DNA of 63,207 nt, the filler included, from Collodictyon triciliatum (lineage: Eukaryota): NCBI GenBank assembly GCA_043381765.1. It is 15 parts of 15 records of this genome, joined end to end, with 100 filler letters (N's around TTAATTAATTAA, not from the genome) between each part and the next. Parts side by side here need not be neighbours in the genome. Positions count along the whole stretch, not along the records: positions 30,613 to 34,882 come from JBHJMP010006296.1; 14 more parts are not named here. The stretch is one strand, 5' to 3'. The position numbers and the translations under genes were made by a program. Of this stretch, positions 32,554 through 34,413 are shown piece after piece. Positions within the stretch are counted from its first letter, which is position 1. Every line of letters begins with the position of its first letter. Below the pieces are notes generated by a model, which did no database searches, had not been told where the DNA came from, and saw only the letters and a program-made list of their open reading frames with translations.

Positions 32554-34413
32554 ATGGATCAAGAATGCGAGTTCTGCAAGTCCAGATTCGTAAGCTCCGC
32601 AGTGGATGCCTTCTGCTCTGCAGATTGCCGCATCCGCCCGTCAGGTGCTGCCCCACAAGAGAGCTCTTTGTTGGCCGCAAAGAGATTCTCGACAAGGGCA
32701 GAAGCTGTCCTGGATCTATTGACGCGAGATGACCTTGCTCAATACATATCGGCTGGACCAAAGTACTCTGAATCAACCCTGCGAAAGCATGGATGGGTTG
32801 AGAAGCTGTACGATGGATTCTGTCGAACATACGAGGTGCAACCGTGGCCCTTATCCACAGACGTTGCACCAGGATTTATCCGATTTCTCGGAATCGGAGT
32901 TGGATATCGCGTCAATAGCATCCAGGACGTTATCTGTCCTAGCCTGAAAAGGTTGCAAGTCATCAAAGGCTATGATCCTGTCAGCCACGAAATCTCTGAA
33001 CAGATGGTCAGGGCTGTCAAGGATATCAAAAATACCAAGAGCAAGGCTGTCAGGCAAATGGGGAAGCAGCCAGCCATCCAAGATGATGTCATCCGAATCA
33101 TCAGCCTCACCCCCGACGGCCTGCCCACAAAGGCATTGGAGGCGAGTCTGTGGCTGGTGGCGGTCAATACCGGGGCACGCGCCATAACATGCGCAGCTGT
33201 CACGCTTGCTGACATCACTCAGGCGTACAGGTTGCCCAATAAGTCGGACGAGAACTGGTGGTTGGTTCACATCCGATACAGGGTGACAAAGGGGATTCCC
33301 GATTGGAACCATGAAGTGACCTTGGAAGGTCGACTGGATGCAAGATCGGATGCAAACACCATCTACTGGTTGAACAAACACCTCCAGTCGGAGTTTGGGT
33401 TGGGGCTGGATAAGTTCAAGGAATGGAATCTCTCCAAAGAGATGGCTGACAGGCCTCTCTGGAAGGATAGCAAGGACGTTCTTCGAGAGATGTTCAAGAA
33501 GAGGGCAAGGTCTGCCGGGTATCCAGATGGGATGTTTGGGTTCCATAGCCTCCGATCCGGATTCATCTGCTCGGCCCTCGTCAGGGCTGGAACCGATCAG
33601 AATGCTGTCAAGTCAATCTTGGAGAATACCGCGTTCGTTGCAGGTTGGGTCCCCAACAAACCAGCTCAGCTGAGGTACGTCAAGGAATGTACCAAGCGCA
33701 CCATCGTGGCCAGTCGCCTGGGTGCACAAGAGAGCGAGGTCTACAGCAACATGCCTGTGGAGAAAACGTTGACGACACCGGAAGCCTTCCACTCTATCAC
33801 GCTGGAGACCAGCCAATGGCCTGATGACACCAACTACATGAGCTTCCAGAAGACTGTGGACCAATATATCCAGCAATGCATGGACATCCTGCCCGAAAAG
33901 TCCACAAGGCCAGACAACCTCAAGATCAAGCTGTGGACACATGCCTTCAATAGGTTCGCTGAGGCCATCCCAGAGGTCATGGAAGCCTCACAGGCCAGGT
34001 TAGAAAGCGAGAACGAAAGAGAAGTCAGAGAGGGCAAGCGAAAGTCCACCCTGACCCACGCCTGCAGGTATGTTGGGAGACAATACTTGGTGGAGAAGCT
34101 GAAGCAAGAGTATGGAGGATTGGAGACTTATGTCGAGATGTTCAAGGAGTACGTGGCTGAGGATATCCAGACTGAAGACATAACAAAGAGCTACGCAAAG
34201 AAACAGAAGACCGCCCATGTCTACACCCGCCCAGTCTTGCACACCACCAAGCACCGAAAGCGAATCGCCTGGACCCCTGAAGAGGATGCCCTCCTGAGAC
34301 AGGGTGTGGATGAAGGTAAGACTTGGGTACAGATCGCTGGTACCCTGACCATCAACGAGAGGACCAATGTGGACTGCAAGGACCGTTGGAGAAACCTGGC
34401 CAAGAAGCGCTAG
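32554..34413 (+). CDS. Tyrosine recombinase (Crypton/DIRS-like YR domain) with an N-terminal CxxC..FCSxxC zinc motif and a C-terminal telobox-type Myb/SANT domain
   Basis: Uninterrupted 619-aa ORF. Catalytic residues: NTGAR (R209), VTKG (K246), FHSLRSG (H331, R334), AGW (W365), QLRYV (Y375). C-terminus: RKRIAWTPEEDALLRQGV..W..I..RTNVDCKDRWRNL. Confidence 0.9.
   Translation: MDQECEFCKSRFVSSAVDAFCSADCRIRPSGAAPQESSLLAAKRFSTRAEAVLDLLTRDDLAQYISAGPKYSESTLRKHGWVEKLYDGFCRTYEVQPWPLSTDVAPGFIRFLGIGVGYRVNSIQDVICPSLKRLQVIKGYDPVSHEISEQMVRAVKDIKNTKSKAVRQMGKQPAIQDDVIRIISLTPDGLPTKALEASLWLVAVNTGARAITCAAVTLADITQAYRLPNKSDENWWLVHIRYRVTKGIPDWNHEVTLEGRLDARSDANTIYWLNKHLQSEFGLGLDKFKEWNLSKEMADRPLWKDSKDVLREMFKKRARSAGYPDGMFGFHSLRSGFICSALVRAGTDQNAVKSILENTAFVAGWVPNKPAQLRYVKECTKRTIVASRLGAQESEVYSNMPVEKTLTTPEAFHSITLETSQWPDDTNYMSFQKTVDQYIQQCMDILPEKSTRPDNLKIKLWTHAFNRFAEAIPEVMEASQARLESENEREVREGKRKSTLTHACRYVGRQYLVEKLKQEYGGLETYVEMFKEYVAEDIQTEDITKSYAKKQKTAHVYTRPVLHTTKHRKRIAWTPEEDALLRQGVDEGKTWVQIAGTLTINERTNVDCKDRWRNLAKKR

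Follow-up and report, generated by a model that had tools for sequence, protein, structure and literature searches.

Cryptons are small DNA transposons in which a tyrosine recombinase is the sole enzyme and which have no long terminal repeats (Goodwin et al. 2003; Kojima & Jurka 2011, PMC3212892). The recombinase carries an added C-terminal DNA-binding domain, and Crypton-derived genes are known in animals and fungi (PMC3212892). The model in which the donor terminus matches the target has been confirmed for CryptonF-1_cRei, which uses CACCG/CAYCG (PMC9977147). CryptonV comprises tyrosine-recombinase DNA transposons which insert specifically in simple repeats (microsatellites) (Kapitonov & Jurka 2012, as cited in PMC8869645). 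In the main Crypton survey (PMC3212892) the word Myb does not occur. Other elements are linked to telomeres. These are the telomere-capping Helitrons of Paramecium (PMC13085455), Oxytricha TBE1 and Tetrahymena Tel-1, both cited therein, and the EN-minus Penelope-like elements Athena/Coprina, in which a hammerhead motif occurs together with telomeric repeats (PMC8557442).

We analyzed a stretch of 63,207 nucleotides of Collodictyon triciliatum (assembly GCA_043381765.1), termed the window in the following. It consists of 15 pieces, one of them trimmed by the window end and the other 14 about 4.24-4.28 kb long, which are joined by 14 artificial linkers of 100 nt each (44 N, TTAATTAATTAA, 44 N). 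An intact ORF of 619 aa (protein P0001) runs from ATG to TAG at 32554..34413 on the + strand, uninterrupted as the first-pass annotation had it, and codes for a recombinase-Myb protein with 47 homologues at E<=0.001. The same annotation had compared the ORF with intron-rich housekeeping genes and had spoken of its contig. This context has to be given up. Since the pieces are joined by N-linkers, the neighbors of the ORF within the window are unlinked and the remarks on the contig and on intron-rich genes describe no linked DNA. The contig bearing the ORF comprises only 30613..34882 (4270 nt, no strand assigned), between the linkers at 30513-30612 and 34883-34982.

As judged from a structural model and from the sequence, the 619-aa protein is a Cre-like tyrosine recombinase with a predicted core-binding and catalytic fold. 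The AlphaFold2 model (pLDDT 84.1) is similar to Cre (3crx_A) in Foldseek (E 1.1e-7, TM(target) 0.62), and VIA-align places model residues 68-392 onto residues 29-341 of the Tre/Cre chain (Z 17.5, rmsd 4.4, 282 aligned). The alignment with Cre spans the core-binding helical domain as well as the catalytic domain. From both comparisons and the invariant columns of an alignment of 32 homologues we delineate the predicted two-domain core at aa 68-392 (32755..33729, + strand). In this alignment all sequences have R209, K246, R334, W365 and Y375, and at least 90% have H331, in agreement with the catalytic set proposed earlier. The catalytic roles of the six residues are those which we take them to have from their order and spacing relative to the Cre numbering. 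The profile check gave a divided answer. Pfam Phage_integrase (PF00589) does not match the 619-aa protein at E<=10, so that the assignment rests on the fold, the catalytic residues and the relatives. Two relatives using a ciliate code exceed the Phage_integrase cut-off of 27.1 (39.9 and 32.1 bits) and carry the Myb domain as well; at E<=0.1 the profile matches 9 of the 32 aligned members.

The recombinase is followed by a predicted helical region without Pfam match (aa 428-545, 33835..34188, + strand; model helices H428-444 to H541-545) and by a single C-terminal Myb domain at aa 572-615 of 619 (34267..34398, + strand). This domain matches PF00249 with E 1.5e-8 (its 35.1 bits exceed the cut-off of 24.4) and PF13921 with E 6.1e-7; the stretch W573...RTNVDCKDRWRNL is present in the C-terminal region. 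PF00249 is also matched by 29 of the 32 aligned homologues. Thus the Myb domain itself is confirmed, but the telobox or TRF-like label, with the telobox consensus taken as generally known, is not established as generic Mybs outrank TRF1 and TRF2. With the single protein as query, MYB21 of T. vaginalis (1.4e-8) ranks before TRF1 (3.9e-5). With the family profile the order is c-Myb (5.3e-18), MYB21 (8.7e-15), B-Myb, SNAPC4, Cef1 and Reb1 (3.6e-6), followed by TRF2 (9.4e-5) and TRF1 (1.1e-4).

At the N-terminus we find a four-cysteine motif (aa 5-25, 32566..32628, + strand) with the pattern CxxC-x12-CxxxC, that is C5-x2-C8 ... F20-C21-S-A-D-C25, which is probably a small zinc finger. The model is less certain here (pLDDT 63-72). 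A cysteine motif is present as announced, but the designation as FCS-type is not supported by Pfam zf-FLZ, which with 7.3 bits (E 4.4) stays well below its cut-off of 23.4. The pattern is conserved in 7 of the 32 aligned homologues, and by eye it is seen at the ORF start or in the first mini-exon of the related loci L001, L002, L003 and L005.

According to sequence comparisons, the architecture of tyrosine recombinase plus Myb is the norm of a large, diverse, multi-copy protist family. A search among 1.84 billion representatives yields 319 clusters at E<=1e-30, and in 77 of the best 150 of these, by our own count, the match extends in one stretch to the Myb region. Members are found in Monocercomonoides (many paralogues), in Diphylleia and on metagenome contigs with a ciliate code. 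In Monocercomonoides exilis one cluster of at least 90% identity comprises 5 members, which lie on 5 different scaffolds, and there are other paralogues besides, with at least 14 named for this species; for Diphylleia rotans family transcripts were found. Small 5′ introns were noticed by eye in L001 and L002. DUF3504 (CryptonA) and GCR1_C (CryptonF) were undetected in all 32 aligned members. The first-pass annotation knew of no described family with this architecture, and a search of full-text articles likewise gave no description of a transposon combining a tyrosine recombinase, Myb and telomeric repeats; Repbase Reports and article supplements may contain such entries. The family is large and so far unnamed.

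What distinguishes the relatives is their proximity to telomere-type repeats. A run of at least two perfect units is present in 17 of 27 related loci, compared to 0.02 loci expected from shuffled sequences. The 27 loci include near-duplicates (L010-L013, L014-L016 and L017/L018/L024 share elements), so the number of independent lineages is about a dozen. A perfect run is absent in the other 10 loci; in some of them the flank is too short, and in L003 the run is degenerate. Relative to the coding strand 23 of 24 runs are in the G-strand orientation and one in the C-strand orientation. TTGGGG is confined to loci needing code 6; in standard-code loci the unit is TTAGGG. The tracts precede the copies, and direct tracts are found on both sides. 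On the contig of the window ORF there is no canonical telomere run. The suspected link to telomeres therefore holds for the relatives, which are flanked by host-type repeats with a strong orientation bias, but not in this form for the window copy; the suspected satellite setting is borne out as far as the flanks go, for this copy lies next to a 316-nt satellite. The association with telomere-type repeats is real in the relatives, and we infer that the Myb domain and the recombinase target such repeats.

Upstream of the window ORF, 240 nt from the ATG, pattern matching and alignment with relatives delineate a candidate recombination or 5′ terminal site (32263..32322, + strand; boxes of repeat family D9). 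It comprises two direct T/G-rich boxes (32263-32277 and 32288-32302), then a CAACTCG core and then an inverted box. The inverted pair CATTTGGGT (32292-32300) and ACCCAAATG (32314-32322) is separated by 13 nt, which is longer than the spacer of 6-8 bp usual for core sites of tyrosine recombinases. The site of the relatives has the same order of a G-rich repeat, a CAACTCG-like core and often one inverted repeat unit. The pattern GGGTTG-N0-8-CAACTCG was derived from the ciliate-code relatives and has 13 matches across 11 related loci. In the 63-kb window it matches once, at 32297-32313, with 0.01 matches expected, an expectation which is post hoc because the pattern was chosen after the window sequence had been viewed.

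We suggest that the ORF is probably the sole gene of a small (~3-4 kb) Crypton-like DNA element, which is associated with telomere repeats, site-specific and guided by its Myb domain. The recombinase could excise the element as a circle. This circle would then re-integrate by a site-specific crossover at the conserved site, as in the Crypton model where the donor terminus matches a short target. Here the sequence shared by donor and target would be the telomere-type repeat. The Myb domain, perhaps together with the Cys4 motif, might bring the recombinase to double-stranded telomere-type repeats. If telomeric tracts received such integrations time after time, oriented head-to-tail arrays with short repeat tracts in between would result. 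Since the window copy is situated in a 316-nt satellite and has telomere-like boxes (TTTGGGTTG) only, it may go back to an insertion which is internal or older, or stem from a lineage with a changed target.

Arrays of this kind could also arise without transposition. Yeast Y' elements form subtelomeric arrays, and the units found here could be a repeated gene family of this Y' type near the telomeres. Homologous recombination or break-induced replication between telomeric tracts, together with telomere healing, would spread the units from one chromosome end to another, and the recombinase would not mobilize them but have a different role at telomeres, e.g., in resolving or recombining telomeric DNA. 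The arrangement is indeed like that of Y' arrays. Head-to-tail pairs are present in 7 loci, all of them among the 12 that exceed 3.5 kb. The copies are often about 3.1-3.2 kb apart, and the telomeric tracts between them are short and differ in length (2.3 to 8 units). L001 terminates in at least 19 units of TTAGGG, oriented as at a true chromosome end. However, the non-repeat CAACTCG-like core, which directly follows the tract, is conserved among proteins which are just 30-45% identical, and this argues for a specific site rather than plain homology. Further on, adjacent units within one array belong to different subfamilies (L009-L012), which is more suitable for successive insertions than for unit duplication, and the full catalytic set is kept across the 319 clusters. 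In our view a Y'-type spreading is therefore unlikely.

For the window copy its immediate surroundings have to be considered as well. Tandem Repeats Finder detects 3.2 copies of the 316-nt satellite (77% matches) at 30616..31627 (+ strand; repeat families D1-D3 and D7), and degenerate traces run on to about 31922. On the 3′ side of the ORF we find the final 145 nt of one satellite unit (34645..34789, + strand; families D4 and D5, 86-92% to unit 2). As looser alignment of the satellite flanks gave long spurious matches, strict local alignment was used. It matches 34645-34789 to 31120-31263, the sole satellite match across the ORF. The satellite phase on either side of the ORF is not contiguous in this alignment; thus the element ends cannot be fixed nor an empty site reconstructed. 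A C-rich 19-mer at 34484..34502 (+ strand, family D10) with a second copy at 32021-32039 (95% identical) is a candidate, unproven flanking direct repeat. By eye there is weak indication of a possible 3′ splice site of a 5′-UTR intron at 32499..32553 (+ strand; TACTAAC, a pyrimidine tract and CAG abutting the ATG) and a possible poly(A) signal AATAAA 59 nt past the stop codon (34472..34477, + strand). A CCCTAA pair directly 5′ of the ATG belongs to the pyrimidine tract and was dropped as a telomere remnant. Tandem Repeats Finder and read depth also reveal an (AAAGAC)8.5 microsatellite (34579..34629, + strand). Besides the main ORF, the region 31000-36000 contains only one ORF of at least 80 aa (91 aa, no Pfam match), and Rfam gave just two sub-threshold miRNA-like matches over the contig, at a hairpin at 34547-34602.

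The sequence is listed by 12 sequencing runs, with small shares (0.05-0.14) and no RNA run among them, of which four were examined (X1, X2, X4, X13). Heavy read depth is confined in these to the simple repeat region 34475-34760; the very high metagenome depth over (AAAGAC)8.5 arises because it is a common simple repeat. Identical pieces of 150-200 nt are present in freshwater metagenome runs (32951-33242 in X1; 31210-31415, 31641-31792 and 32099-32250 in X4). A joint of 34789 to 30623 in run X2 was rejected as evidence for a circle as it resembles an ordinary satellite unit junction (13 differences, 3 gaps). A contaminating protist could have contributed the contig to the assembly. The NHL-repeat ORF on another piece of the window had distant matches only.

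Could the ORF then be a domesticated single-copy host gene of the window organism, descended from such an element and now serving as a DNA-binding regulator of the Myb type or as a factor associated with telomeres? It is intact and present once in the 63-kb window, it has no canonical telomere tract, its GC content of 0.53 (GC3 0.65) is near that of other coding ORFs of the assembly (0.51-0.52 for NHL and BTB ORFs), and the domestication of Cryptons is well documented (PMC3212892). Yet the ORF has kept all catalytic residues, whereas most of these are missing from domesticated DUF3504 genes, as the abstract of the same survey states. In addition, the conserved element site is still found upstream of the ORF and the 4.27-kb contig is bounded by satellite repeats, a typical picture for repeats in draft assemblies. 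Domestication thus appears quite improbable to us.

The proposed stand-alone recombinase is indeed the only enzyme on its contig and in the complete ciliate-code units of 3.1-3.2 kb, which hold one gene each. The contig, as had been claimed, and also these units are devoid of RT, RNase H, methyltransferase, capsid and polymerase; as weak evidence, no longer fused homologues were found either. DIRS/Ngaro retroelements encode RT and RNase H along with the recombinase, and those of the DIRS type a methyltransferase as well. That the ORF represents just a part of a larger element, such as a retroelement of the DIRS/Ngaro type, a Polinton-like virus, a virophage or an insert of a giant virus, with the other genes off the contig is highly improbable: although the contig has just 4270 nt and a DIRS-type ALOG/Phage_integrase cluster is among the nearest ESM-Atlas clusters (score 0.97), the complete units of the relatives between successive telomeric tracts have one gene, no RT/RNase H is present in 7 longer family proteins or in 10 ORFs scanned from related loci, the 2.9 million viral contigs of IMG/VR contain no relatives and the BFVD fold search finds only generic phage integrases (best E 1.6e-5).

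For the Crypton-like element a wider reading can tentatively be put forward. In the ciliate-code relatives only, a hammerhead-type motif with a CUGAUGAG...CGAAA core in type-I order is seen by eye just after the stop codon, and it is invariant across 10 aligned copies. In L012 the RNA concerned would comprise 83 nt (1786-1868). Rfam Hammerhead_3 scores it with 16.6 bits against a gathering threshold of 48.5 (E 0.29), and a scan of 68.7 kb gave no match at E<=0.1. It is possible, albeit with considerable reservation, that oxymonads, Diphylleia, ciliates and the window organism share one pan-eukaryotic superfamily whose members insert specifically into the telomere repeats of their hosts, in one orientation and by means of a telomere-binding Myb domain and a conserved crossover core, and form subtelomeric head-to-tail arrays, the ciliate members having a self-cleaving RNA of the hammerhead type after the stop codon.

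Hardly any DNA transposon directed to telomere repeats is known to us, the telomere-specific elements described so far being retroelements or, recently, Helitrons. If our suggestions are true, nature would here provide a site-specific insertion system of programmable appearance, with a recombinase that has its own Myb domain of the telomere type, a definable crossover site and a target which is universal and harmless. The family would form a new branch of eukaryotic tyrosine-recombinase elements and a source for domesticated telomere-binding or Myb regulators. Should the wider reading hold as well, a ribozyme would for the first time be found in recombinase DNA elements, and the ciliate members might be the coding counterpart to the internal telomeric repeats that have long been known in germline DNA of ciliates.

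With Cre, XerH and lambda Int the window protein has the two-domain fold and the catalytic residues in common. However, the identity is just 12-18%, the window protein is eukaryotic, and the Cys4 N-terminus, the helical linker and the Myb domain are additions of its own. The Cryptons share with the window element the plan of one recombinase with a C-terminal DNA-binding domain, and on grounds of this architecture we tentatively place the family beside them. In contrast to Cryptons, Myb takes the place of GCR1_C, the shared sequence is a telomere-type tract and not a word of 4-6 bp, and the copies are found in head-to-tail arrays. CryptonV is cnidarian and targets microsatellites according to PMC8869645, whereas the repeats of the window family are of the telomere type. 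The other telomere-linked elements (Helitrons, TBE1, Athena/Coprina and Y') rely on an HUH nuclease, a DDE transposase, a reverse transcriptase or a helicase, and for none of them a combination of tyrosine recombinase and Myb is reported. A link of Tel-1 to the window family is conjecture. Nevertheless Helitrons, TBE1, Tel-1, Athena/Coprina and the yeast Y' elements all resemble the window family in their association with the host telomere repeat, their fixed orientation relative to it and their arrays at or near chromosome ends.

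The protein encoded at 32554-34413 (P0001) is a Cre-like tyrosine recombinase. As the first-pass annotation had stated, its reading frame is intact: 619 codons on the + strand lead from an ATG at 32554 to a TAG at 34411-34413, and this is the longest stop-to-stop frame within the window. The motifs read from the sequence, namely C5-x2-C8, F20-C21-S-A-D-C25, the recombinase residues and the C-terminal W573...RTNVDCKDRWRNL, were all found again. Among 5.8 billion proteins searched, 47 are homologous at E<=0.001; the top hit has 46% identity across 93% of the query. In the alignment with 32 homologues the columns of R209, K246, S332, R334, W365 and Y375 are invariant and H331 is kept in at least 90% of the proteins. 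The AlphaFold2 model based on this alignment has a mean pLDDT of 84.1. Among PDB structures Foldseek places Cre recombinase first (3crx_A, E = 1.1e-7, TM 0.62 on target), followed by lambda integrase, XerA, IntI and XerH. With VIA-align the model superimposes on Tre/Cre with Z 17.5 and an rmsd of 4.4 Å over 282 aligned residues, and both Cre domains are covered (model residues 68-392 onto Cre residues 29-341). The proposed recombinase is thus borne out by fold and catalytic residues but not by the Pfam check, as the Phage_integrase profile did not match P0001 at E<=10. This profile scores 39.9 and 32.1 bits (cut-off 27.1) in relatives from loci which need genetic code table 6, reaches E<=0.1 in 9 of the 32 aligned members and is found in about 30% of the members of the nearest ESM-Atlas clusters, one of which is ALOG/Phage_integrase.

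The surroundings of the gene must be read with care. A scan found 14 linkers of 44 N + TTAATTAATTAA + 44 N in the window, among them 4276-4375 and 61062-61161 and the two which border the contig of the ORF (30513-30612 and 34883-34982). The pieces between them measure 4275, 4273, 4273, 4274 ... 4266 nt, nearly descending around 4.27 kb. The window is therefore a pseudo-scaffold in which small unplaced contigs have been strung together; the other window genes are not neighbours of the ORF and gene-neighbourhood inference across the linkers is invalid. The true contig comprises 4270 nt (30613-34882). An NHL-repeat ORF and a BTB_2 ORF elsewhere in the window are unlinked to the recombinase gene; their GC content of 0.51-0.52 resembles that of the recombinase ORF (GC 0.53, GC3 0.65), which is compatible with the same organism and no proof of it. 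Within its contig the ORF has a GC content of about 0.5 versus about 0.35 in the flanks. Another piece carries (TTTGG)17 at 40057-40141, which may be a microsatellite or a host telomere-like repeat, and in the piece after the ORF contig the first 90 nt or so are T-rich simple sequence of the (T)nC type (34983-35075).

Myb is the sole Pfam domain found in P0001 (residues 572-615; PF00249, E = 1.5e-8; PF13921, E = 6.1e-7). It is a single repeat at the protein end, present in 29 of 32 homologues. This much agrees with the telobox-type Myb domain that had been proposed, but generic Myb proteins outrank the telomere-binding ones. With P0001 alone Trichomonas vaginalis MYB21 (1.4e-8) stands above TRF1 (3.9e-5) and other telomere-binding Mybs, and with the family profile c-Myb, MYB21, B-Myb, SNAPC4, Cef1 and Reb1 all come before TRF2 and TRF1 (about 1e-4 each). 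The FCS-type label is not confirmed by the profile: zf-FLZ scores 7.3 bits in P0001, below the Pfam cut-off of 23.4. The N-terminal four-cysteine pattern itself recurs in 7 of 32 aligned proteins. Since by eye it also lies at the ORF start or on a first mini-exon in four metagenome loci encoding relatives (L001, L002, L003, L005), it is probably commoner in the family than the gene calls indicate. Two small introns are apparent by eye near the 5' end in L001:50-340 and L002:400-700, with the cysteines on their own first exon, so that prokaryote-style gene calls leave out the N-terminus in many members of the family.

Among 1.84 billion cluster representatives the family profile matches 319 at E<=1e-30 and, with the threshold relaxed to E<=1e-10, 1896; at E<=0.001 it matches 15,390, a set that takes in ordinary Myb proteins. 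By our own count, the match runs unbroken from recombinase to Myb region in 77 of the top 150 clusters. Paralogues are numerous in Monocercomonoides exilis, where five proteins on five scaffolds form one cluster of at least 90% identity, and transcripts of a family member occur in Diphylleia rotans. The claim that no reverse transcriptase accompanies the gene holds for this multi-copy family: reverse transcriptase, RNase H and other transposition enzymes are absent from seven longer members. One of the seven, P0147, a metagenome protein of 2064 aa, carries a ubiquitin C-terminal hydrolase domain (UCH, E = 3.7e-37) in one frame with two recombinase matches and is probably a read-through of adjoining genes on a ciliate-code contig. 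Among 2.9 million viral contigs there is no relative, and a viral fold library gave matches to generic phage integrases only.

We analyzed 27 metagenome loci encoding relatives. In the eleven low-GC loci L009-L019 the standard code gives no ORF across the recombinase match (in L014-L019 none of at least 120 aa), and tables 4, 10 and 15 give none of at least 200 aa. Table 6 yields intact ORFs across the match, of 528-886 aa and mostly of 560-627 aa. These loci are probably from ciliates. Their translations open with runs like WGWGWG, and inspection of the DNA for this reason revealed TTGGGG tracts: (TTGGGG)2.3-8 precedes every copy in the ciliate-code loci, with tract lengths that differ among copies. 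In standard-code loci the repeat is TTAGGG. L002 has three units of it at a distance of 124 nt from the ATG, on the upstream side, L004 has three short runs and L021 three units. In L001 at least 19 units form the extreme end of the locus, 1.2 kb downstream of the ORF, and their polarity is that of a true chromosome end. The only reversed run is (CCCTAA)3 at L008:3332-3349, downstream of an 822-aa member; a tRNA gene (3599-3671, - strand, 66.7 bits) also lies downstream of this member. In L025 four TTAGGG units follow the 1591-aa ORF of a distant family member and separate it from an adjoining piggyBac-type transposase ORF (7356-8561, - strand, DDE_Tnp_1_7, E = 6.3e-17). Altogether 17 of the 27 loci have at least two perfect telomere-type units (0.02 loci expected from mononucleotide shuffles) and ten have no perfect run; on the coding strand 23 runs are G-strand and one is C-strand. 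As elements are shared among L010-L013, among L014-L016 and among L017, L018 and L024, the independent lineages number only about a dozen.

Directly after the tract the relatives have a short core in common. In the ciliate-code loci it reads AGGAGCAACTCG, in some followed by CAACCCC, the inverted repeat unit; L002 has AAGCCAACGCAAAACCCTA, and L003 a degenerate tract and then GAACCAACTCGCAACCCAAAT. The window has CATTTGGGTTGTGAACAACTCGACCCAAATG at 32292-32322: a T/G-rich box, which also occurs at 32263-32277, the same CAACTCG core, and then the box inverted, with 9 nt matching perfectly. The pattern GGGTTG-N0-8-CAACTCG, derived from the ciliate-code loci, has 13 matches in 11 related loci and a single one in the 63-kb window (32297-32313, + strand, 240 nt upstream of the ATG), where shuffles predict 0.01; the pattern was picked after the window sequence had been seen and the test is therefore post hoc. 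That a non-coding site is common to elements whose proteins are only 30-45% identical argues for a function. With inverted repeat-type arms around a spacer the site looks like a recombinase core site, although the 13-nt spacer in the window is longer than usual for one.

The contig of the window ORF has no canonical telomere run. Upstream of the ORF lie 3.2 units of a 316-nt satellite (30616-31627, with degenerate traces to about 31922) and downstream the last 145 nt of a unit (34645-34789). The element may be inserted in the satellite, or the contig may, as in the relatives, hold portions of two units in head-to-tail order, the satellite then belonging to a long 3' region of the element. The satellite does not continue in phase from one side of the ORF to the other, and the window offers a single copy for comparison. 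Freshwater and lake metagenome runs share a few stretches of 150-200 nt, without any difference, with the ORF and the sequence upstream of it, and variants of the satellite were seen in freshwater runs.

All ciliate-code copies (20 instances; L009-L019, L024) carry a motif of about 75 nt within about 30-50 nt after the stop codon, for example L012:1786-1868 and L012:4980-5063. It is invariant in 10 aligned copies while the proteins differ. By eye we recognize a helix I strand, CUGAUGAG, a hairpin, CGAAA, a second hairpin and the complementary helix I strand, and the loop GGAGGGUC is complementary to the downstream 8-mer GACCCUCC. In this order of parts the motif resembles a type-I hammerhead core. 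Rfam Hammerhead_3 scores 16.6 bits on it (threshold 48.5), a 68.7-kb scan gave no hammerhead match at E<=0.1, and the MFE fold is modestly better than shuffles (z -2.06). The ORF contig of the window lacks the motif.

We suggest, with moderate confidence, a telomere-repeat-associated, Crypton-like element which excises and re-integrates at the conserved site. The recombinase would excise the element as a circle, the circle would re-integrate into telomere-type repeats by crossover at this site, and the Myb domain could supply the repeat recognition. The proposal is based on an intact gene for a Cre-like recombinase with a Myb domain, on a large family that is multi-copy and lacks reverse transcriptase, host-matching tracts of fixed polarity, head-to-tail arrays, and a post-tract core also found in the window. 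The arrays are pairs about 3.0-3.2 kb apart in seven of the twelve loci longer than 3.5 kb (L003, L009-L012, L017, L018), the paired copies often belonging to different subfamilies. In L009-L019 the 60 nt left of internal TTGGGG tracts, ending ...GTGAATAAAGGG, are conserved across subfamilies and probably represent a 3' end that the elements share. The main rival for such repeats and arrays is a subtelomeric family spread via homologous recombination like the yeast Y' element, which we consider unlikely. Doubtful too, and ranked after it, is that the window gene, present there as one copy, is a domesticated host gene in its organism. That the ORF is a fragment of a larger element is very improbable; longer homologues were looked for and none was found, which is weak evidence.

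The proposed element would work like a Crypton. In the Crypton model, as given in the relevant part of PMC9977147, the donor terminus matches a short target, which is verified for CryptonF-1_cRei, and CryptonV, as cited in PMC8869645, is a precedent for simple-repeat targets. DUF3504 (CryptonA) and GCR1_C (CryptonF) occur in none of the 32 family members, and a text search of the 2011 Crypton survey (PMC3212892) does not find the word Myb. Full-text searches, which did not extend to Repbase Reports and paper supplements, gave no description of a mobile element that joins a tyrosine recombinase to Myb and telomeric repeats. Other elements are telomere-associated as well, but according to the passages that treat them, both the Paramecium Helitrons, TBE1 and Tel-1 (PMC13085455) and the Athena/Coprina Penelope-like elements (PMC8557442) use enzymes different from a tyrosine recombinase-Myb protein.
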